The translations under genes were made by a program, and so were the position numbers. From a virus, in UHGV virus genome UHGV-0115695: a stretch of 42,066 bases of DNA; one strand, given 5' to 3'. The notes beneath the pieces are model-generated. The model was not told where the DNA came from. It worked only from the letters and a program-made list of their open reading frames with translations, and searched no databases. Each line of letters starts with the position of its first letter. Within the stretch, counting starts at the first letter, position 1. Positions 4,857 through 42,066 of the stretch are shown in pieces.

Positions 4857-5334
4857 TTATTCGCTCCCGTTATCGCAAGGTTCCTTCCGGTGGAAGTAAT
4901 TCCAACCGTTCCACTTCGCCAACTGGTTACCACTACCAACAGGCATACGGTTTGGATAACCGGACTTACATTTAGCGGCTTTTGCTCTGTCCATTGCAGA
5001 CAGTTTGACGAGTCGCTCTTTCCCGTATCTGGCAGTGGTTATAAGTTTTGCAGAGGCTTCCAGCGCATAATCCGGAGCAATTCGGCAGGCAAGGTTGAAA
5101 ATGACAGAATTGATAGCGTTATTTGATAAACCGTGCTCATCGCCCGGATCCGGAGCGACATCTGCATCAGCAAAAATGTAGCCAACGTTGATGCCAGGTG
5201 ACACATCACCGCCAAGCCATTCAGCCATCATCATTTCAAGGTCATTGACGCCGTCTTCCATGGACTGCGGTTCGACATCGGTTAACGTGGCATTTGATGC
5301 CACACCGAGCTTACGTAATGCCGCAAGGACTAAA

Positions 5335-5357
<23 letters not shown>
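4857..5357 (-). CDS. 4: Head completion protein, P22 gp4 homologue (start at internal Met of the 203-aa track ORF)
   Basis: From [33 protein letters not shown]... the protein matches recalled P22 gp4 and gives 166 aa; the N-terminal (SQ)n extension in the track comes from reading the hexanucleotide repeat and is rejected. Confidence 0.85.
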
Positions 5358-5607
<250 letters not shown>

Positions 5608-5620
5608 GCTTGTCTCCAGA

Positions 5621-5648
5621 TAAAAAAGGGAGCCGAAGCTCCCTTTGG
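5621..5648 (-). terminator. Rho-independent terminator downstream of coat gene
   Basis: Minus strand reads GGGAGC-TTCG-GCTCCC followed by TTTTTT, immediately after the coat stop codon. Confidence 0.8.
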
Positions 5649-5651
5649 TTA

Positions 5652-6947
5652 TCACGCGGTCTGGTTAGGCAGACCAACACCAATTGCCTCTGGTCGTACA
5701 GCACATGCTGAATACCACACAGCAATACGGCACTTACCAGACAGAGTGTTGATATCACCCTGCGTTGCGAAGATGCCGTTAACACCAATACCAGGAATGC
5801 TGAAGGAAGACGTTTTCATGCCAGCAAACAGTTCATGGGTTACCGGGATCGGCTGAGACAGTAGACGGATTGAGTCATCAGCCCAGAACACGTTAGCGGT
5901 GGTTGTTGCCACGTTCAGAACGTTTACCGGAGTGGTATCAGCAAGAGAGGTGTTTACATTCGCGTAAGCCTTCTCTTCTTTTGTCAGTGACGCGTCATCA
6001 AGTGCAATCGGCTTCGGCGTGATTTCGATGTGAGTACTATCGATCACACGGGTGATTGAGAAAGTTGCATCATCAGTCAGCACGTTCTTCGCCATCTGAG
6101 ACAGGAATTTCACACCAGTGAAGCTTATTTTGTCGCCGCGCTTAAATCCGGTGGTGGAGGATACGGTCACCGTTGCAACACGGTTGTCGACGTTCTCTTT
6201 GTTACCATCGGTATCAAGGGTGTATGCCTGCGGCTTAAACTTCTGCGCACCAGAAACAGTTACACCAGTAGCGGTTGACTTGGTAACTGCCGGAAGTTTC
6301 GGTGAGCGAAGAATTTCATCAAAGCCAGCAATCTGACGCTGAATAGTACCGTTGCGATACGCTTCTTCAGGAACGCGCCCGAAGATGTCACCATCTACCA
6401 GGTTGCGGCCTGCTTTGCGGTAATCGTCGGGGTTCAGGAAGTAACTGATGCCCATATCGCGGTTTAGCTCACGGGAGAACATCAGGCGCTCTGCATCAGA
6501 CACAAAATCCCAGCCAGACAGGCCAGTAGATGGACCAATTGCGCGGGTATCGTGAACAACAAGCGAGCCCATTTCAGTTGCCTGTTTGGCAATCGCTGAC
6601 TCAATGTTATTCGCCAGTTTTTTGGCGGATGCCTGGATGCGGCGACGGTAAGAACGCTCATCACGCAGGTCATCTGCACGAAGCTCGAAGAAATCGTTAT
6701 CCGGATCGCCCATGTTGCATTTCACGGAGAGTTCCAGAATCCCGGTTGCGTTGCCAGTTAAATCCCAGCCAGTCTGGGTTGGCGCTTCCTGCTCAACAGG
6801 CATCCACACGGTGTTGCTTGAACGCTGCATGGATTGTGCCGGAGGGGTGTATTTTGTCACTTTGGACGCCATTGGCGTCAGATTCTGGACGGTTTCGATG
6901 ATTTCATCGATAGCGTAAGTAACTAACTGCCCTTCTTTGAGAGTCAT
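5652..6947 (-). CDS. 5: Major capsid (coat) protein, P22 gp5 homologue
   Basis: 431 aa; strong similarity along the whole length to recalled P22 coat protein (e.g. ...[15 protein letters not shown]-terminus). Confidence 0.95.
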
Positions 6948-8461: not shown

Positions 8462-10627
8462 TTATTGAGGTGTCTCGGCTACTCCGCCGGAGGGGATTTG
8501 AACTTGACGCATAAGATTCGCGAAATCCATGCGTTGTGAATGAGTCTGGTCTGCATCTTTAAGAAGCAGCTCAGCGTTAGCGCGAGCGTCTTTGCTGCGC
8601 TGTTGCTGGAATTGACCTACGAGCTTGAGGTACTCACGCAGTTCTGCCTGCTTGTCGAGGTCCATATTGTTGAAGATTTCTGCAATCTTCGCGGCGTTGA
8701 GTTGGTTTTGGGCTTCAACCTTGGCAGCTTCAACCTGAATCTGCGCCTGTTGGTTCTCTGCCTTGAGCAATTCAGCCTGACCTTGCAGAAGGATACCCTG
8801 CGCCTGAATTTGCTCTGCTGATGGCTGCTGCGTCTGTTGTTGTGCCTGCTGCACCATCTCCATCTCTTCAGGTGTTTCTGGTTTCTTCAGCCCCATCATC
8901 ACCAGTTGCTTGTTCGCGTACTCTCGCATCATCTCGACGCCTTTACCGTCAAGCAGCGTGAAGTATTGCAGCATCAGCATCTGGAACTCTGGAGTACCTT
9001 GCGGAACCTTGGTAAGTAACTCCTGAATCTCTGCGCGGTTCTGTTCCTTCATACTCTGGAAGGATGGTCCAACGTCTGTATAGCACTCATAGCGACCGCG
9101 AATGTCGTTGAGTGTGACCACATTGCCGGACTGGTAATCTACAACTTGCGCGTAGAGTTGAACGTCTTTCTCGCTTCCGTCTTCAAGAGTCAGCGTTACA
9201 TGGCGAGGAACGTCATAAATATCGTTGACCATTGAGGCATAAATCTCGCCATCACGTCGCATTGCGGTAGCCAGGTTATCCTGAAACACGTATGTCTCAA
9301 GGTCTGCCCGCATGTTCAGTTGATTGACGGTATCGAAAGCGACCTGACCATTTGCCGCCTTCGCATCCACGCCAAGACTAGCCACCTCTTTCACTGCGTT
9401 GGTGGCAGCCTCAAGCATGTAAGCGTTGGCTTGCGGCACTTCAGGGTTTTCCATGTAGGAGATTGGACCAATCGGCAGGTCGTTGCCGTTTTCATCGGTC
9501 TTGTTCTGCAAATAGTACGGATAGTCATCATTTCCACCGTACATGTATTCGTAGCCTTCGATTTGCTCAGGGAAGAAGGTCGGTTTCTTCTTCGGTGAAC
9601 GAGCAACAATATCGGCGTTGAACGACATGATCATGTTACGAAGGCGTTGACCGTCTTTCGTCAGCCTTACCACTCCTTCGTAGCACTCCTTGTCACCAGC
9701 GAATGACCATTCGCCATACACTGGAACGATTGGAATATGCTCTCCGGCTATCTTCTCGCGGTCTTTCAGTATCTGCGTGCAGGTGATGATCGACTTATAC
9801 ACGCGCCGACGCTTCACCTTGCGCTCTGCTACCTTAATGAATCCACGATTAGCCAGGTCGTCGATGACGTCTTTGATATCCTGCTGGTAATAGCTGACCG
9901 GCTCACCTGTCAGCGGGTCGCGGTAGATGAAGACTTTCTCCTTCTTCTCTTCTACCTCGTAATACTCAGCGACGTAGACGACATCATTCGATACCCACGG
10001 AAACAGCCATGTATCGTTCGGATTCTGGAAAGATGGCAAGGTGTCCGGATCAATACCGTAATCCTCTGCGAACTCTTTCCAGCCATTGCGCGACAAGGCG
10101 TTAATCACCGTGCAGTGCTTAGCGTCGCTCTTATCCATCTGCTTGCTGTTGGCGTCCCATATGACGTGTGAGCAGGCTTCATGGATTGGCAGGCGTCGGA
10201 TTACCTGATTGTTGCTTGTTGGGTCGTTGTCTTCGTACTGGGTGACCAGACGCCATGCACCAACGCCGGACTCTATCTGCTCACGAACGCCAACGTTAAC
10301 GGCAATTTTTGCCGTGTTATGGCGCATATCAGTACGATACATTCCCATCAACACATCGGCAGCATCAGGATTAGCGCCGTCTTTGGGTCTGAATAGAACG
10401 TCGATAGGGTTCCGACGCATCTCTGCGACCAGTTTCCTGACCACCGGGCGAACAACATCGAATTGTCCGCGATATTGCAGGGTGGTGTAGTTTGATAGCC
10501 AGTCATCCCATTGCGACACTCGGCTAAAATACAGGTCATTTGTCGCCTCGGTTCTGGCTTCATCGCTCGCCATCCAGTCTGCGTCAAACTTACACAGAAT
10601 GGAATTGAGTCTGTTTTCGTCGGCCAT
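8462..10627 (-). CDS. 1: Portal protein, P22 gp1 homologue
   Basis: 721 aa; P22 portal-like sequence with long C-terminal Gln/Ala-rich coiled-coil barrel region. Confidence 0.95.
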
Positions 10628-31117: not shown

Positions 31118-31365
31118 AATAGCGGGTAAAATATTTTTCACATCTAAAAAATACCATTCCAATCAATCCCCTGCTGCCTCAAGTAGATGTCTGCAGGGGA
31201 CACCATGAACACTTCTCACTAAGTCCAATTAATTCCATAACTCACTGTTTTAACTGATATCATCTCCTTATACTCGTCCAGCAAAGTACCATTATTTCTA
31301 ATGGAATCTATACATCTTTGCGTATAACATTGTGTATAACTGAGTTCGATCTTTTTTCTATACAC

Positions 31366-32541
31366 ATGCTGCTATCTGACATCCAAATAAAAAGAGCAAA
31401 ACCGAAGGACAAACCCTATACGCTTAACGATGGTATGGGGCTATCACTCCTGATCGACACAGCGGGCAGTAAAGGCTGGCGTTTTCGCTATCGCTTTGCA
31501 GGTAAGCCTAAGATGATTTCCTTTGGCGTATATGGCGATGTGTCGTTGGCACAGGCACGTACCAAACGTGATGAAGCGCGTTCGATGTTAGCCAAAGGGA
31601 TAAACCCAAGTGAAGCCAGAAAAGCAGATAAGATTGCTTTGCAGTTCGCGCATGAGAACAGCTTTGAGTCTGTGGCCAGAGAATGGCACTCATCGAAAAA
31701 AGCCACCTGGTCAGAGGGTTATGCAAAAGAGGTTCTCAATTGTATGGAAAAGGATATTTTTCCTTTTATCGGCCAGCGCCCAATTGAGCAGATTGAACCA
31801 TTAGAACTGCTAACCGTCCTGCAAAAAATAGAGAAAAGAGGTGCGCTAGAGCAAACCAGTAAGATCCGCCGCCGCTGTGGTGAAGTGCTTCGTTATGCTG
31901 TTGCCACTGGTAGAGCAAAGTATAATTTTGCACCCGATTTAGCTATCGCACTCAACAAACCTAAAACCCAACACTTCCCGTTCCTGACTGAAAGCGAGTT
32001 GCCCGAGTTCGTTAATGCTCTGGATAACTATCAGGGCAGTTTAGTTACCAAATACGCCACGCAGCTGTTGATGCTAACAGGCGTGCGAACAATTGAACTA
32101 CGTGCAGCGGAATGGGCTGAGTTTGATTTAGATAATGCCTTATGGGAGATCCCCAAAGAACGGATGAAGAAACGCCGCCCCCATCTGGTTCCGTTATCAA
32201 CTCAGGCGATCAATATCCTGAAAAAGCTGCAAGAAATAACAGGGAATTACAGCCTCGTTTTCCCTGGCCGAAATGACGTCAGGAAACCAATGAGCGAAGC
32301 CAGCATCAACAAAGTGATAAAACTACTGGGTTATCACGGTCGGTTAACGGGTCACGGTTTCAGGCATACCATGAGCACCATCTTGCATGAGCATGGGTTT
32401 GAAAGTGCCTGGATTGAAATGCAGCTTGCGCATGTTGATAAGAACTCTATTCGAGGTACTTACAATCATGCGCAATATATTAAAGATCGACAAGTAATGA
32501 TGGAATGGTACGCTAGCTTATTAAATACGACCTGCTATTAA
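31366..32541 (+). CDS. int: Tyrosine integrase, P4-family (arm-type N-terminal DNA-binding domain)
   Basis: N-terminus IKRAKPKDKPYTLNDGMGLSLLIDTAGSKGWRFRYRFAGKPK typical of P4/CP4-57-type integrases; C-terminal catalytic region with R...HGFRHT...Y; ATG at 31366 preferred over the upstream TTG. Confidence 0.9.
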   Translation: MLLSDIQIKRAKPKDKPYTLNDGMGLSLLIDTAGSKGWRFRYRFAGKPKMISFGVYGDVSLAQARTKRDEARSMLAKGINPSEARKADKIALQFAHENSFESVAREWHSSKKATWSEGYAKEVLNCMEKDIFPFIGQRPIEQIEPLELLTVLQKIEKRGALEQTSKIRRRCGEVLRYAVATGRAKYNFAPDLAIALNKPKTQHFPFLTESELPEFVNALDNYQGSLVTKYATQLLMLTGVRTIELRAAEWAEFDLDNALWEIPKERMKKRRPHLVPLSTQAINILKKLQEITGNYSLVFPGRNDVRKPMSEASINKVIKLLGYHGRLTGHGFRHTMSTILHEHGFESAWIEMQLAHVDKNSIRGTYNHAQYIKDRQVMMEWYASLLNTTCY

Positions 32542-33471
32542 ATCCAGCATGAAACAAATATGGTGAGTAATTTGATACTGTTTGTTTTTTGGCAACCCAG
32601 GGAAATGCCTTACAGTTGGTTGACTATTGTAATAATAATAGTTAAGACCAATGTTGCTGCCAAACTGGGTTGGATGTTGGGGAACAAGATTTGTAATTTG
32701 ATCTGAAACATCTAAAAATTTTGCAGTAACATTTGAACTTCCTCGTTGCGTGTTGCTTGATACAAAATGACGAATCCAAACTGTATTCGCTTGTAAATTC
32801 TTGAACACCAAATGTGCGGCAACAGCAGAAGGTTGACCACCTCCAAGATCTAGTACCTGGCCAGTAATTGTATAATCGCCAAATCCTAAGTAATTTTGTC
32901 CCACGAATTGATGTGCGTGCGTGAAAAGTTCCGGCCCATTATAATCAGCATTTTTTGCTAACTTTCTAAAGTTATCGCTAATAATAATTAACTTCGACAA
33001 AGGAAGAAGAGCGCACTGATTAGGAAGCATTTTATTATTTAAAACAACATGATAACTAATCAATTGATTTGTCGCCAACAACTGAATATCAGAGTTGGAT
33101 AATGATGGATTATCATATAGAAGTGCAACTCGTCTATTTAAGTTAGCATTCAACCAATTATTAATATCATTAATCGTTGTATTGGGCTGAATAAGATATC
33201 CAGAGATGATATTGTTTTTATTTGTTAATACACTTGATAAATTTTGATTTAAAGTTAAGACGTTATTGTGTGAAGAAAAATCTTCCTGATAAGGATTAAG
33301 GATAACAATTATGTCAGAATTCCAAACATTTAAACATGTTAATAAATTTCTCGTATTGACGTTAATTGGTTCTAAAATTGGTAGCAGACCATTTAGGCTA
33401 ACTCCCTTCGCAACGAGGTCCCTAAGGCATAATAACTCTGTACTTCTCGCATACAAATATGGGCTATACAT
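32521..33471 (-). CDS. Unknown protein B of low-GC two-gene cassette (316 aa)
   Basis: Long uninterrupted ORF, AT-rich codon usage distinct from flanks, 22 nt downstream of protein A; only weak motif VLDLGGGQ; no family recognised. Confidence 0.75.
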   Translation of the reverse strand: MYSPYLYARSTELLCLRDLVAKGVSLNGLLPILEPINVNTRNLLTCLNVWNSDIIVILNPYQEDFSSHNNVLTLNQNLSSVLTNKNNIISGYLIQPNTTINDINNWLNANLNRRVALLYDNPSLSNSDIQLLATNQLISYHVVLNNKMLPNQCALLPLSKLIIISDNFRKLAKNADYNGPELFTHAHQFVGQNYLGFGDYTITGQVLDLGGGQPSAVAAHLVFKNLQANTVWIRHFVSSNTQRGSSNVTAKFLDVSDQITNLVPQHPTQFGSNIGLNYYYYNSQPTVRHFPGLPKNKQYQITHHICFMLDLIAGRI

Positions 33472-33492
33472 AACTTACAACTCCTGAGGATA

Positions 33493-34374
33493 TCAACAAA
33501 TTTTAATTTTTACATCCATCAAATTCATGATGAATTCTTTTTGCTTTCTTGATAATGGTGTTGCATAACCTAAAACACGTAAACATGCTGGAAGAGAATA
33601 AATATAATCCAAAAAAACTTTGTCGTTACATCTTTTTTTCATAGCAGAGATAAAGTATTTATTTGCTATGTTTAATGGCATCTGCATGAATATCTCTTTA
33701 CAATATTCATAAACCAATCCATTAGGCATATTTATTTTAGTTGAAGTGTAATCTTCTATTATAGCTAAGAACTCTTCCTTTCTAAGAACTGAAAACAAGC
33801 TGTCACTTTTAATATAATCAATATTTGAATCTGCCTCCTTAATGACACTCAATTGATCTTTTTTATTCAAAACCATAACTCCCACTCTGGGGAGATTTAA
33901 AGCACAATATTTACTTGCATACTCTGGATGTGTAACTATATACACTTTATCAAAAACATCCAAATAATCAGGGGCTTGAGTAATCAACCTTTTTGGTGAA
34001 TCATACTCTGTCTTAATCTCGTAAGCTGTAGACGTACCATTAAACACCGCAACATCCACTATAGAGTTTTTAATTGGTAACTCTATGGACGACGAACTTG
34101 TTTTTGGGCTGTGCTTACCGAATATTATTTTATTGACAAGTGCTGTCTTATAAACATATTCATTTCTATAATTCAGACGCAAAAAATCATATAATGATGT
34201 AAATAAATCCCTTAGTGAAATCTCATGTTCATTATTATCATTGTTTGAAAACAGTGTTTCATAGCAGTAAGAATCAAAACTCCCAAATAAATCCGAAATA
34301 TCCTTACCTTTTGCTAAGGATGAAAAAATGGGGCGACGGAAAAATTTAGCATATTCCTTTTTATTATGACTCAT
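33493..34374 (-). CDS. Unknown protein A of low-GC two-gene cassette (293 aa), possible PD-(D/E)xK-like nuclease
   Basis: Long ORF, AT-rich; segment SIVDVAVFNGTSTAYEIKTE has the D...ExK spacing of restriction-endonuclease-fold catalytic cores (inference only). Confidence 0.75.
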   Translation of the reverse strand: MSHNKKEYAKFFRRPIFSSLAKGKDISDLFGSFDSYCYETLFSNNDNNEHEISLRDLFTSLYDFLRLNYRNEYVYKTALVNKIIFGKHSPKTSSSSIELPIKNSIVDVAVFNGTSTAYEIKTEYDSPKRLITQAPDYLDVFDKVYIVTHPEYASKYCALNLPRVGVMVLNKKDQLSVIKEADSNIDYIKSDSLFSVLRKEEFLAIIEDYTSTKINMPNGLVYEYCKEIFMQMPLNIANKYFISAMKKRCNDKVFLDYIYSLPACLRVLGYATPLSRKQKEFIMNLMDVKIKIC

Positions 34375-35609: not shown

Positions 35610-38297
35610 TCACTCAGGTTCAGCGCTTCCCAGTACCTGTGTATTGAACTGGTACACACGTTTAAGCCCTATTTCTGGCAGGCGAATGCTGTTTTGCGTC
35701 CGGCCATCTTCACCGGGTTTCAGCCAGCCCGCGTCCACACACAACCTGGCCACCTTACGCGAGTCAAATCCCTTACAGATCTCCTTCCAGCCTGACGGGA
35801 GAACGTAGAACGTCACAACCGGCTCTGTCACGTTGTCTCCTTTATCGACTTTTCTGAATCCCATCATTGAAACAGGCCGGTTCCTGTCGTCATTCCAGTC
35901 AGCAAACCGACTGAACTGATTACGCGTCATGAAGTCCCGAACCTGTTCAAGTGCCGCTTTATCTTCCTGATTAGCTGTATGGCCCCGGTCAGCCATCCAT
36001 GCAGCCAGACAGCTTTGAGCGGCACGAAAGGCCTCTCCCTCCGGCCATCCTGTGATGCCCGCTTTTGTGGCCAGCTCCCCGGCCATCGCAACCAGAGCAA
36101 AACGGGTAACAGCCCGGCCAACCTGATTCCCGGCATTTTCCGGCGTCAGCCTTCGGGTATACTCTTTCAATAAGGCTTTCGCCTGACTGGTCAGTTCCGG
36201 CAGATCAGCGGTCAGGCAATACAGCCAGTCGCGGAATGGTGCACCATGATAATGCGCTACGTGCTGCTCAAGATGCTCAGCCAGGGTTTTCCCGCTACTG
36301 AAGCCATGAAGTTCTTCAAACACGCCATACTTGCCCGAATCGCTTGGGATCTGGATCATTCTGACCTCAACCCCGGCATACGTACGTTCCCCGGCGCTTG
36401 CCGCATGCTCTACCAGTGACAGTTCCCCGGTAGACAGAAACAACAGATTCCAGCGGTTGGTTTCCCTTACCGAACCATCTGTTCTGGCTCTGGCTTTGCC
36501 CTGCCCGTTAGCCAGCATATAAGCGATATTCCCCGCCTCCCTGCCGTCAACCTCCCGGATTTCATCCAGCATCAGCGTGGCATCATTGCGGCGGCTCGCC
36601 GTTCCTTCTAAGGCATTCCCCGTCGCCCGCCACGTATGCCAGAAATCTGTTCCACCACATACTGATGCAGCCACTTTCATCGTCGTGGTTTTACCGTCTG
36701 TGGATTCCCCTTTGAGGTGATAACCTCCACCGCCGATACCAACCAGTTTCAGAAGGGGGGCAGCAAATGCCAGACTCACCGCAAAGGCAAGACGGGCATT
36801 CTTTATGCAATAACGGCCTATATTTTCACGCCAGCCCTCTGATGTGCCGCTGACACGAAAATCACGCCCCTGCACACTCGATGTTTGTAAGATGACTGAC
36901 TGGGCTTCGCGCCCTATCACTTCATCCTGGAGAACGTAAACCCCGCCGTGCCAGCCAGTTTTATTCACACAGGTTACTTTTCTGTCCGGTTTACACAGCG
37001 AGATATATTCCATCAGGAATGCTCTGGCCATGCCATTAATGTTGATGTAAGAAAGCCCGTTAACCAGCAGAACGCGGCGCAGTTCTTCCCCGCTACCGCC
37101 CAGCATCTCCATCGGCATTGCCCATTTACGGCTGTTTCCGTTGGTATCTTCCCATTCCAGCAAACGCCCGTAATTACTTCCATCAGCATCACTGGTGATT
37201 GCCGTCACCCGCAACGGACTGCAAATTTTGATATTACGTATCTCTGTATCACCATCAGACTTATTAACCAGCTTGTCGTACCACAAATATTCTTTTGTCA
37301 GCCGGAACCCTTCTGGTAAACGGGTCTGCCCTTTGCCATGCAGCGTCATTTCTTCACGAAAGGCATCTCTCGCCCGTTCTTTCCCCACTTCCTGCCGATA
37401 ATCATCCCAGTCAGCCTTATGGCGTACCGGAGGGAGCGTTACCCAGCCATCCACCGCTTTGGCGGCTTTCTCTGCCTGAATACGCCCGGTGTTTTCTTTG
37501 CCGTCAGCCAGATCATTATCTCCGGCCAGAATGATCCGAGTTTCCGGCCAGCGTTTTCGGATCTGCTCCGTCACCTTCAGTAAATTGGTGGCAGCGACAG
37601 CCGCCACGATCCATCCTTCAGTCAGCAGACTGACGGTAAGCGCCGTGGCAAAACCCTCAGTGATAATCACCTGTTCAGGTGTTTCAGCGGGTATATCGGT
37701 CAGGGCAATGAATGCGCCAGACAGCTGGCTACCGGGCAGCAGACTTTTATCCCCGTCAGGATTGATAAGCTGGCCACCAGTAATATTCCCGGAAATATCC
37801 GTCAAAGGCAGCAGTAATGAACCGGTGGAAAATGTTATTCCGGCCAGATTCAAAGGCTGTGACAGCAAGGGAAGTGAATACCCGTGTAAGCCCTTATTTG
37901 TCAGATAGACCGGCTCACCATTGCAGGACTGCTGTCTGAGTCTGGTATATCGCTCCGCGCCCGCTTCTTTTCCTGCGGCCTTTTTCCTGGCTGGCAATGC
38001 GGGCTTCTCCTGTATTTCTGGTAATGCAAGCGCCTCAGATACCATCCCGGCGACTTCTTTTATCTTTCTTCCTGTCACCAGACGAACCAGATCAAGACCA
38101 TCGCCATGACCGCACTGATTACAAAACCACGTCCCTCGCCCCGCTTTATCGTCCAGTCGAAAACGATCTTTTCCACCACAGGCAGGGCAAGCCCCATGAT
38201 GTCCTGCGGACGGTACTTTAATACCTAATGCTGACAGGATATAAGGCCAGCGCCCAATTGCAGCTCCGGAAATCGTGGATACAGACGGTGTTTTCAC
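35610..38297 (-). CDS. Primase-helicase, P4 alpha family
   Basis: 895 aa; N-terminal zinc ribbon CPACGGKDRF...CNQCGHG, Toprim-like ITEGFATALTV, C-terminal helicase with Walker A GESTDGKTT. Confidence 0.9.
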   Translation of the reverse strand: MKTPSVSTISGAAIGRWPYILSALGIKVPSAGHHGACPACGGKDRFRLDDKAGRGTWFCNQCGHGDGLDLVRLVTGRKIKEVAGMVSEALALPEIQEKPALPARKKAAGKEAGAERYTRLRQQSCNGEPVYLTNKGLHGYSLPLLSQPLNLAGITFSTGSLLLPLTDISGNITGGQLINPDGDKSLLPGSQLSGAFIALTDIPAETPEQVIITEGFATALTVSLLTEGWIVAAVAATNLLKVTEQIRKRWPETRIILAGDNDLADGKENTGRIQAEKAAKAVDGWVTLPPVRHKADWDDYRQEVGKERARDAFREEMTLHGKGQTRLPEGFRLTKEYLWYDKLVNKSDGDTEIRNIKICSPLRVTAITSDADGSNYGRLLEWEDTNGNSRKWAMPMEMLGGSGEELRRVLLVNGLSYININGMARAFLMEYISLCKPDRKVTCVNKTGWHGGVYVLQDEVIGREAQSVILQTSSVQGRDFRVSGTSEGWRENIGRYCIKNARLAFAVSLAFAAPLLKLVGIGGGGYHLKGESTDGKTTTMKVAASVCGGTDFWHTWRATGNALEGTASRRNDATLMLDEIREVDGREAGNIAYMLANGQGKARARTDGSVRETNRWNLLFLSTGELSLVEHAASAGERTYAGVEVRMIQIPSDSGKYGVFEELHGFSSGKTLAEHLEQHVAHYHGAPFRDWLYCLTADLPELTSQAKALLKEYTRRLTPENAGNQVGRAVTRFALVAMAGELATKAGITGWPEGEAFRAAQSCLAAWMADRGHTANQEDKAALEQVRDFMTRNQFSRFADWNDDRNRPVSMMGFRKVDKGDNVTEPVVTFYVLPSGWKEICKGFDSRKVARLCVDAGWLKPGEDGRTQNSIRLPEIGLKRVYQFNTQVLGSAEPE

Positions 38298-39607: not shown

Positions 39608-40612
39608 TCAATCCGCAAACGTCAGGGCGCTCTCATCGACAGCCGCGTACAGTTCAGGTTCACCGAGTGCATAACCTTCATTGCGCAGGTAGGAATGCAC
39701 GTATTCACTGCTTTCATCATCAAACTCAGCACGAAACCAGCGTGTTATCGCCTGAGTGTAAATATGCAGATTATCCAGCGTCGTTACTGCCAGACGCTTA
39801 CCCGGCATAAACGGGGGAATAAACGCAAAGCGGCCAGCAACAGAACTTGTAGCCATCTGTGCCGCATTCACATCAGACGGGCGGTCTGCGGCATTAAATA
39901 ACTTCAGGCGTTGATGTGCTGCCAGCTCTGCCCCAACCAGTACAACCAGACGAGGATCTTCACGAAACTGCTCAGCAATAAGCTCTGTAATCAGATGGTT
40001 GGCCAGAGCATCAATATTTTTCCAGGTGCCAGTCTCTCCCAGAGTGACAGGCTCAGAGATGATTTGCTTTCCGTTCCCGTAGGCTTTCGCCAGTGCATGC
40101 CAGCCAATATTGACATCCTCGCCTTTTTTATTGATTTCCGGGTTTGTAGTATTTGCAATCGACACACCATTGAAACCGACCCGCAGCATGTCCAGCGCAT
40201 ATGCCTGGGCAAAAAAGCTCTCAACCGTTTTCTCAAACTCATCCGGCACGCCGGTATGGTAAATATGAGACATATCGGAATAGCTGATCCGGGCGCAGGT
40301 ATCCGTCTCTGTCAGAAAGAACTCCGTACCATTGATTGCCATTTTTTTGTGGAAACGGCCACCATCCACACGTCCGGTATACAGTTCACTGGCACCAATA
40401 TTGACGGCATTACCTGACACGGCGTTAACATCACGTAGGGTAATATTTTTAATAAGCCACCCGGATTCCAGAATTGAGGTACGCAGTATATTTTCAGTAG
40501 GTTCGCTTAATGCAAAGCGTCTGTTTGATTCTTCCTGATAGTTAGTGCCAGTGACGAATTTATTATGATAACGACGTGCTGCGTCCGGCCTTTCAGTTTT
40601 GAAGGCATACAT
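39608..40612 (-). CDS. Putative major capsid protein, P2 gpN-like (recalled similarity; unverified)
   Basis: 334 aa; segments GFNGV...GW, DALANHLITELIAEQFREDPRLVVLVGAELAA and TTLDNLHIY resemble what I recall of P2 gpN. Confidence 0.5.
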   Translation of the reverse strand: MYAFKTERPDAARRYHNKFVTGTNYQEESNRRFALSEPTENILRTSILESGWLIKNITLRDVNAVSGNAVNIGASELYTGRVDGGRFHKKMAINGTEFFLTETDTCARISYSDMSHIYHTGVPDEFEKTVESFFAQAYALDMLRVGFNGVSIANTTNPEINKKGEDVNIGWHALAKAYGNGKQIISEPVTLGETGTWKNIDALANHLITELIAEQFREDPRLVVLVGAELAAHQRLKLFNAADRPSDVNAAQMATSSVAGRFAFIPPFMPGKRLAVTTLDNLHIYTQAITRWFRAEFDDESSEYVHSYLRNEGYALGEPELYAAVDESALTFAD

Positions 40613-41512: not shown

Positions 41513-41755
41513 TTAGGAGTTTAATTTTCTATTGAGAATATTCTTCTCTATCCATTCATTAACTTCATGCTCCACCCATGCAACAGAACGAGAACCGATA
41601 GAAACTTGGTTCGGAAATTCATCATTCTTTATCTTTAGATAAATTGTTGACTTGGGTAAGCCAGTCAAATTAATCACTTCTGATATTCTCAGAAGTCTAT
41701 ATCTTTTTTGGGGTGCGTTTTCCCGAGGCAATAAGCTCATGGCTATGTCCTTCAC
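41513..41755 (-). CDS. AlpA-family transcriptional regulator of the satellite
   Basis: 80 aa; RLLRISEVINLTGLPKSTIYLKIKNDEFPNQVSIGSRSVAWVEHEVNEWI HTH typical of AlpA; first gene of the minus-strand operon. Confidence 0.8.
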   Translation of the reverse strand: MKDIAMSLLPRENAPQKRYRLLRISEVINLTGLPKSTIYLKIKNDEFPNQVSIGSRSVAWVEHEVNEWIEKNILNRKLNS

Positions 41756-41871
41756 ATTAGATATTTATACTAAGACTTAATTAGTCTCTATTGGGTGTAT
41801 ATATACTTGCACAGAAGAATTAATACGTAAAGACTGGCACTTTCAAACTCATTCAAAGAATTTGAATACTA

Positions 41872-41901
41872 AATAATGGTGAATAATAGTTAATAATGGT
41901 G
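41872..41901. repeat. Three tandem 10-bp units AATAATRGTK upstream of the satellite alpA gene
   Basis: aataatggtg / aataatagtt / aataatggtg read consecutively; helically phased, in an AT-rich promoter region. Confidence 0.6.
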
Positions 41902-42012
41902 AGTATTACTGAGTGACAACCTTTGCCAATGCTTGTTAATCTCTGATAATAATGAAATTTGACGAATAATATATGTAACAATTTGTAAACTAAAGACTGC
42001 ATTAGGTTTGTT

Positions 42013-42062
42013 GGGGCTGGGCTGGGCTGGGCTGGGCTGGGCTGGGCTGGGCTGGGCTGGGG
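42013..42062. repeat. Hexanucleotide microsatellite, about 8 copies of GGGCTG
   Basis: Perfect period-6 array at the window edge. Confidence 0.95.
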
Positions 42063-42066
42063 AAGA

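Follow-up and report, generated by a model that had tools for sequence, protein, structure and literature searches.

Known simple-sequence contingency loci include the CTCTT repeats within the coding sequence of Neisseria opa, tracts located in promoter spacers and the distal TAAA tract of nadA. The variable-number tandem repeat (VNTR) loci used for typing Escherichia coli and Salmonella include the 6-7 bp loci of O157 and STTR5/6, several of them located within prophage or intergenic DNA. In the pks (colibactin) island of E. coli, the clbR-clbB intergenic region contains a ACAGATAC repeat, present in 2-20 copies, and the signal of a clbR promoter reporter carrying 20 copies is about twice that obtained with 5 (PMC7364221). 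The repeat described here is a perfect tandem array of the pentanucleotide GGGCT, located at the right end of the virus genome UHGV-0115695, a stretch of 42,066 nucleotides analysed as a whole and referred to as the window. The array lies upstream of the AlpA/Vis-family gene (alpA) of a P4-family phage satellite, inserted at argW in the E. coli chromosome, and its length differs from one E. coli genome to another.

In kind, the array is a bacterial VNTR. It resembles the clbR repeat in being a perfect short-unit repeat, located in an intergenic control region of an acquired island of B2-type E. coli, upstream of a small regulator gene, and in having a copy number which differs between isolates over a similar range. 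The clbR repeat, however, has an 8-bp unit, is located within the mapped 5' untranslated region of clbR and has a measured effect of about twofold, whereas the present one has a 5-bp unit and lies 274 bp from a start codon and beside an attachment site. Perfection of a short-unit array, slippage-driven length change and proximity to a regulator are also shared with contingency loci; in contrast to these, the array is not contained within a conserved open reading frame (ORF) and apparently does not lie between -35 and -10 elements, its alleles give no evidence of switching, the host is a mismatch-repair-proficient enterobacterium, and the location is a satellite prophage rather than a surface-antigen gene. 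The VNTR typing loci are similar as hypervariable short-unit arrays with conserved flanks, differing between close isolates and stable within outbreak-scale sets, but a 5-bp unit is unusual among them. Literature searches with the repeat string, its complement and keywords yielded no account of this locus; in E. coli, the string matched only an unrelated merC primer. The range of alleles in near-clonal genomes, the occurrence of different units at one spot and the position, between attP and a block resembling the P4 origin, place the array above a routine microsatellite, while showing no function by themselves.

The window was extended by using the identical E. coli genome Ecol_244 (locus L001). 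Tandem Repeats Finder places (GGGCT)x9.6 at 42014-42061 of the + strand, with period 5 and 100% matches, and the final 55 bases of the window correspond to GTTG(GGGCT)9GGGGAAGA. A first-pass annotation had described eight perfect GGGCTG units at this edge. A perfect tandem array of 48 bp is indeed located there, but its length corresponds to 9.6 x 5 and not to 8 x 6; a scan by period gives 43 consecutive identities at period 5 versus 4 at period 6, so that the longest period-6 run is only 4 bases and the hexanucleotide unit has to be abandoned. About 5e-22 runs like this one are expected in 42 kb of random sequence. Perfect repeats with at least 4 copies and a period larger than 2 are limited, within the window, to the GGGCT array and (TCTGGC)x9.7 at 5405-5462; only the latter has period 6, and the earlier report of a pair of perfect period-6 arrays is incorrect. 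As a head-to-tail tandem repeat of a short unit, the GGGCT array falls within the usual definition of microsatellites and VNTRs. It is located in non-coding DNA, is G-rich on the + strand and, in agreement with the first-pass annotation, lies upstream of alpA, 274 bp from its start, the intervening stretch having 29% G+C. Dispersed copies of the unit were not found elsewhere in the satellite, and a scan of the region and its extension against Rfam produced zero matches at an E-value threshold of 1.

The last 667 bases of the window have a match in 435 of 5426 complete E. coli genomes, always on the chromosome and in many cases in O25b:H4-ST131 strains. Array length was evaluated with two queries across the repeat, of 401 and 361 bp, on two evenly spaced samples of the hit lists, for about 85 genomes. 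Length polymorphism between isolates, proposed earlier as a check, proved extensive: at least 23 lengths were found, in 5-bp steps, ranging from 2.6 copies in AVS0790 (L042) to 35.6 perfect copies in the ST131 strain 5506 (L041), both checked by eye, with offsets from the window allele of -7, -5 to +15 and +26 copies. Strain FXCREC073 carries 24.6 copies, the median is about 15.6 in the second sample, and the allele of the window is found in only 14 of the 435 carriers. Satellite variants whose flanks match only to about 87-90% carry 12.8, 16 and 18 perfect copies. The 273-bp left flank, on the other hand, shows an identity of 99% or more in 418 of the 435 carriers, so that variation in copy number beside constant flanks, the second attribute of a VNTR, is present as well. 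The alleles of L001, L003, L005, L041, L043 and L044 are all perfect, the exception being a rearranged one in strain AZ 191 (L004, NZ_CP184114.1), where the segment 1660-1830 contains (GGGCT)2.6, a 34-bp copy of the right flank, a long array and the right flank again; this split array may reflect a real duplication or an assembly error.

Perfect arrays, one-unit steps and an invariant flank are the signature of slipped-strand mispairing, and slippage, already suggested by the first-pass annotation, is strongly supported as the source of the length variation. It is extremely improbable that the lengths reflect errors of long-read assembly. Repeats are error-prone, the right-flank duplication of AZ 191 is odd and possibly misassembled, and two of the sampled genomes have offsets which are not multiples of 5; nearly all the others, however, show exact 5-bp multiples and perfect arrays, and independent short-read assemblies from other genera break exactly within the repeat. 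In addition, six isolates from one study (Esc3, 4, 7, 13, 14 and 22) share a single allele, five of them having chromosomes within 51 bp in length. The common allele of these isolates also indicates that the locus is stable over short spans and that its change is too slow to suggest programmed switching. Even and odd offsets are equally represented (27 versus 28), and a modulo-3 preference is not visible.

A coding role was evaluated on both strands. On the minus strand, an ATG at extended coordinate 42080, 19 bp beyond the right end of the array, starts an ORF (PQPSPAQ...) which crosses the repeat and whose length is set by copy number modulo 3, with either an early end or a product of 56-105 amino acids. 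This is the behavior predicted for a small phase-variable protein switched by copy number, in the manner of the CTCTT frameshift of Neisseria opa, and protein calls are in fact present across long alleles: RefSeq/PGAP annotates "hypothetical proteins" of 41-76 amino acids in L003, L041 and L043. These calls, however, lie on the strand opposite to the ORF starting at 42080, use a TTG start in the flank and are found only in long alleles. The array contains no stop codon in any frame of either strand, so that long alleles open frames by themselves, and the PGAP calls over it are probably annotation artefacts. Furthermore, the ATG is absent from a related lineage carrying a heptamer repeat (see below), the differences between variants are mostly non-synonymous, with an early stop in L005, the downstream "ORF" coincides in part with conserved DNA motifs in a stretch of 29% G+C, and the alleles have no modulo-3 bias. 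The phase-variable protein is very improbable and already largely refuted. A conserved ORF across the array was also sought as the mark of frame-shift contingency, and only unconserved ones cross it. Conserved coding sequence with an invariant copy number, the finding which was to speak against the slippage proposal, is thus not what this locus shows.

No coding sequence surrounds the array in the DNA recovered beyond position 42066. About 125 bp of AT-rich DNA are followed by CCTGCAGGGGACACCA, by the 3' end of dsdC and then by dsdX and dsdA. In island-free genomes, the DNA from CCTGCAGGGGACACCA onward corresponds to the 3' end of the tRNA-Arg gene argW and its downstream flank, which identifies this motif as the attR of an element inserted in argW. 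Control of an adjacent gene beyond the window, suggested by the first-pass annotation, is not supported, because dsdC is transcribed towards the array and attR is located between them; the repeat belongs to the satellite, and not to a gene beyond the window. Within the window, a P22-like prophage (1-31191) and the P4-family satellite (31192 to the window end) are arranged in tandem at argW. The main elements of the satellite are the following:

31192-31206, + strand: left att core, a copy of the argW 3' end (CTGCAGGGGACACCA), at the satellite-prophage junction, directly upstream of the integrase gene.
31318-32541, + strand: tyrosine integrase with an arm-binding domain (Arm-DNA-bind_3), 40% identical to P4 Int.
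35610-38297, - strand: primase-helicase with Zn ribbon, Toprim and DUF927.
41513-41740, - strand: AlpA/Vis-family gene of 75 amino acids (PF05930, 5e-20; phrog_2790; RefSeq annotation).
About 122-136 bp past the window end (L001 6789-6803): attR core, which places the array about 127 bp inside attR.

Assignment to the P4 family is based on a P4-type integrase at a tRNA gene with a duplicated att core, together with Vis/AlpA, an alpha-type primase domain and Ogr_Delta. The AlpA/Vis protein is 46% identical (E 5e-12) to P4 orf88 (Vis; X02534), labelled in P4 as "excisionase and transcriptional regulator", and the N-terminal 317 amino acids of the primase-helicase are 39% identical to the primase domain of P4 alpha, the remainder being unrelated to it. 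An Ogr/Delta zinc-finger protein and an Ash/Icd-like protein are also encoded. No Pfam or PHROG match to Sid or Psu was obtained among the subset of ORFs scanned, no copy of the P4 cos 19-mer was found in the window at 3 or fewer mismatches, and the window contains no intact tRNA gene.

Other features of the island were recorded. A P2-family major capsid homologue is located at 39608-40612 on the minus strand (PF05125, 1e-66; phrog_70). Two genes adjacent to int (32521-34374, minus strand) are assigned by RefSeq to the sce7725 and sce7726 families, with no Pfam match, and P4 cII, at the same place beside P4 int, also bears the RefSeq label "sce7726 family"; this position is the variable or cargo site of the satellite, and may host a defence function. 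The prophage-satellite junction retains only the 15-bp att core (31192-31206), while in other strains, such as Ecol_244, the satellite is found alone, directly beside argW. The argW-dsdCXA region is known to be variable. In L005 (NZ_CM148320), the DNA following attR differs from the dsdC-side flank of ST131-type genomes, the next genes being those for sucrose, cscB, cscK and cscA; L044 (NZ_CM129887) has the same post-attR sequence as L005, and not the dsdC-side flank. Within the prophage, 61-67% of positions 1-24000 can be matched with phages HZ41 and IME10, at 96-97% identity. The (TCTGGC)n repeat lies in coding DNA of this prophage, on the minus strand, where period 6 keeps the frame and produces a dipeptide repeat; it is located at the start of the ORF 4857-5468 (MLQSQSQSQ...), overlapping the end of the ORF 5335-5655 (...EPEPEPEP...), and a coat-protein-like ORF (5652-6947) lies immediately upstream.

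The intergenic region containing the array was compared by aligning eleven related loci, including E. coli variants, metagenomic contigs, Kosakonia, an Enterobacter metagenome-assembled genome and an IMG/VR contig. A common order is found, from attR to alpA: the att core; an AT-rich segment of about 60 bp containing a consensus site for integration host factor (IHF); two TATACAC repeats; a stretch variable in both sequence and length; TTTACA-N5-TTAC; an IHF-like TATCAG-N4-TTAA; three or four phased 10-bp repeats; a palindrome; CTTTAC...TGYAARTATA; and alpA. In the present locus, the elements are located as follows, proceeding from alpA towards attR and ending with the int side:

41851-41867: palindrome ATTCAAA-GAA-TTTGAAT, between the 10-bp repeats and the CTTTAC...TGYAARTATA block, kept in most relatives.
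41872-41902: three phased 10-bp repeats AATAATGGTG, 132-162 bp upstream of alpA, period 10, 3.1 copies (family D2).
41923-41950, + strand: promoter-like TTGCCA-16-GATAAT, 10 of 12 consensus positions, directed towards the array and attR, and towards int once the satellite is excised as a circle.
41936-41948, - strand: IHF-consensus-like site TATCAGAGATTAA (WATCARNNNNTTR), a candidate from sequence and conservation, overlapping the + strand promoter-like match.
41973-41990, - strand: conserved block TTTACAAATTGTTACAT (minus-strand reading), adjoining the array on the alpA side, with two TTAC cores invariant in 11 of 11 relatives.
L001 6667-6675, starting at window position 42066: inverted arm-like 9-mer ATACACCCA, abutting the array.
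L001 about 6705-6726, beyond the window, between array and attR: partner sites GTGTATAAC and GTGTATAGA.
About 31307-31372, int side: candidate arm-type sites TATACAY / GTATAAC.

The GGGCT array fills the variable stretch of the aligned loci. The length of this stretch is about 33 bp in the IMG/VR contig (L023), about 45-85 bp in the other four relatives without a repeat and over 120 bp here, and the distance between the arm sites and the conserved TTTACA block ranges from about 33 to more than 125 bp. The TATACAC direct repeats, 11-12 bp apart and with TATAC invariant across the aligned relatives, are probably integrase arm-type sites, a reading suggested by the Arm-DNA-bind_3 domain of Int and by the similar motifs beside int at 31307-31372. 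The 10-bp repeats are present in all aligned relatives, with a sequence which varies by lineage; in several lineages their core is TTCACC, the same as that of the P4 type 1 iteron TGTTCACC. As their sequence changes while the AlpA helix-turn-helix is invariant, comparison of the loci suggests that they may be bound by a protein more variable than AlpA, such as the primase-helicase. The palindrome may be described as operator-like. In strain 98889 (NZ_CP173438.1) an IS1A is inserted upstream of alpA, about 65 bp to the alpA side of the array, indicating that the region tolerates disruption in at least one strain.

This arrangement raises the possibility that array length tunes the satellite, by modulating alpA/vis leftward, or int rightward and across attP when the element is excised as a circle, or else by altering how the excision/integration complex is arranged in space. 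It would then produce heritable, reversible differences between lineages in satellite mobilisation, as for the clbR repeat or the distal TAAA tract of nadA. Several observations fit. The array lies in the sole intergenic region which contains attP, the alpA control region and, once the element is circular, the region upstream of int; it separates the arm-type sites from the IHF-like site and the 10-bp repeats; ATACACCCA, beside it, recurs in inverted orientation within the proximal promoter block of alpA (inverted repeat I4); the 10-of-12 promoter match points into it; and diverged lineages keep a repeat at this position. A precedent is offered by the E. coli island in which 5 and 20 copies differ twofold in effect (PMC7364221). 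The array, however, is separated by about 190 bp or more from the proximal promoter block conserved in front of alpA, and by 274 bp from the start codon of this gene, and promoter-like matches found in the region by a consensus scan are as many as in shuffled sequences (5 versus 4.5 +/- 2.2), so that individual sites are only leads. Even and odd copy numbers are not distinguished, although each 5-bp step corresponds to half a helical turn, and the length of the spacer is unconstrained among relatives, several of which lack a repeat. Tuning by length is, on this evidence, unlikely, though it is the main alternative to the explanation favored below.

Repeats at the same spot are found beyond E. 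coli. Citrobacter contigs, whose AlpA is 97% identical, begin within (AGCCC)n; an Enterobacter contig, with an AlpA 67% identical, begins within (CAGCCTC)n, a heptamer at the same position. Metagenomic loci of the heptamer lineage (GCCTCCA) carry 3.6, 3.6, 12 and 16.7 copies, and one more, at a contig end, at least 9; the two with 3.6 copies (L033 and L035) are otherwise intact, as is the E. coli locus L042 with its 2.6 pentamer copies, and two loci with almost identical flanks differ as 3.6 versus 16.7. Another relative has a 9-mer, CTTCCAAAG, in 2.9 copies at the same place, while four further relatives have no repeat at this spot. Of the short-read contigs, five are interrupted inside the repeat and one more stops less than or at most 10 bp from it; four IMG/VR loci end exactly at alpA and gave no upstream sequence. 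A distant blastn search in E. coli returned the same 435 genomes and did not find the heptamer lineage. In both the pentamer and the heptamer lineages, the same strand is G-rich. The presence of a tandem repeat here is therefore recurrent or persistent, but not universal, and the unit is not conserved.

On balance, these data are best accounted for by a tolerated, essentially neutral variable repeat, located in a length-tolerant spacer and having at most a graded effect on the neighboring promoters; this we consider probable, if by no means assured. The spacer would be bordered on one side by the outermost integrase arm-type site and on the other by the control or origin-like region upstream of the Vis/AlpA gene. 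Slipped-strand mispairing during replication would add or remove GGGCT copies, and the resulting five-base loops would escape MutS-dependent mismatch repair, keeping the array perfect while its length drifts. In E. coli, the MutHLS (MutS-dependent) system deals inefficiently with loops of at least five bases, which fits the instability of arrays with 5-nt and 7-nt units in a repair-proficient host. Folding of the G-rich strand into hairpins or G-quadruplexes may favor slippage; for GGGCTA repeats, hairpins, non-canonical quadruplexes and length-dependent instability are reported (PMC8287962). The array would persist because any spacer length is tolerated, with no on/off switch. The absence of constraint on the spacer, shrinkage down to 2.6 copies and the lack of a phase preference are the observations which make a tolerated repeat the most likely explanation.

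A comparison with phage P4 was made on the basis of the NC_001609 annotation, in which the type 2 repeats are located at 9176-9205 and orf88 starts at 9030 (L045). Int, Vis and the primase domain are homologous. Three 10-bp repeats are found upstream of vis in both elements, as the type 2 repeats of the P4 origin (ori) at 146-175 bp and at 132-162 bp here; the type 1 iterons of P4 ori lie 280-383 bp upstream of vis, and the array 274-321 bp. Adjacent arm repeats are located 54-77 bp from the core in P4 and about 63-85 bp here, in both cases on the side away from int, and the distance to the three 10-bp repeats is 105 bp for the type 1 iterons of P4 and about 112 bp for the array. The P4 cluster, however, is made up of 8-bp TGTTCACC iterons, separated by spacers, to which the alpha protein binds, while the present array is a head-to-tail microsatellite, and Tandem Repeats Finder detected no microsatellite array in the P4 genome. 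In contrast to P4, moreover, vis adjoins attP, the DUF927-type helicase part is unrelated to alpha and a P2-type capsid gene is carried: P4 re-sizes the helper capsid with Sid, whereas this satellite encodes its own P2-family capsid homologue, Sid being unmatched among the scanned ORFs. Identity of the array with type 1 origin iterons was considered and discarded, as it has no spacers and its unit has no second site in the satellite, position being the sole point in favor. Two other readings of the unit were similarly discarded. A resemblance to Chi, evaluated by eye, is too weak and inconsistent between lineages (pentamer GCTGGGCT, 6/8 versus GCTGGTGG; heptamer GCTGGAGG, 7/8), and an array of DnaG CTG sites does not agree with the 9-mer lineage, which lacks CTG.

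The composition of the array raises the further possibility of a structure-forming element, in which a G-quadruplex, or an R-loop upon rightward transcription with the G-rich strand as non-template, would facilitate the unwinding or priming of the satellite origin, or cause polymerases to stall beside attP, the copy number being free above a minimum. The array is the sole G3+N1-7 x4 motif on either strand of the 42.4 kb of window plus extension; it contains ten GGG runs with CT loops, from which two tandem G-quadruplexes are predicted, the final unit being paired with the flanking CCCAGTCC. The distances from vis and from the 10-bp repeats reproduce those of the P4 type 1 iterons, the array is located beside the P arm, where P4 has crr, G-richness is kept on one strand in the pentamer and heptamer lineages, and hairpins and non-canonical quadruplexes are reported for GGGCTA repeats (PMC8287962). 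On the other side, the heptamer has only GG runs, compatible with weak two-tetrad quadruplexes, the 9-mer variant and the relatives without a repeat have no G-quadruplex motif, and alleles of 2.6 copies cannot form one, so that the motif is dispensable for keeping the locus. The unit, differently from P4 iterons, is not dispersed in the satellite, and the TTCACC-like 10-bp repeats are a better iteron candidate. A structural role of this kind is quite improbable.

Some of these observations weigh against neutrality. Three satellite lineages carry different units (AGCCC, GCCTCCA and CTTCCAAAG) at one spot, which hints at more than drift, and long perfect arrays of 5-7 nt are rare in E. coli. The uniqueness of the G-quadruplex motif over 42.4 kb and the match in position with the P4 type 1 iterons relative to vis point in the same direction. 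The promoter-like TTGNNA-16-GATAAT/C is found in the other repeat-bearing lineages too, and only in them; these lineages are related, and the shared element is not independent evidence. Finally, the similar repeat of the pks island, upstream of clbR, changes expression about twofold (PMC7364221). In a further reading, the array would be a selected mutable element of a combined attP, origin and vis control region, whose length, or whose G-quadruplex or R-loop formed upon transcription from the rightward promoter-like site, would set int/vis expression, excision, replication or re-integration, a proposal which we regard as distinctly unlikely. If it were true, ST131 sublineages would differ heritably but reversibly in satellite mobilisation, and hence in helper-phage interference, and the presence of 5-, 7- and 9-nt units at the same spot would reflect selection for mutability itself.

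The GGGCT array explains the contig breaks and the spurious "hypothetical protein" calls found at this spot. It is among the most length-variable sites seen here in near-identical ST131-type genomes, and may be used as a marker for fine-scale typing or strain identification. If the array does affect vis/int expression, excision or replication, it would represent a rare contingency-type element in E. coli and, to our knowledge, the first case in which the mobility of a phage satellite is tuned by a mutable repeat. As different units recur at one position in related satellites, a test of such a role would be worthwhile, and cheap to carry out.

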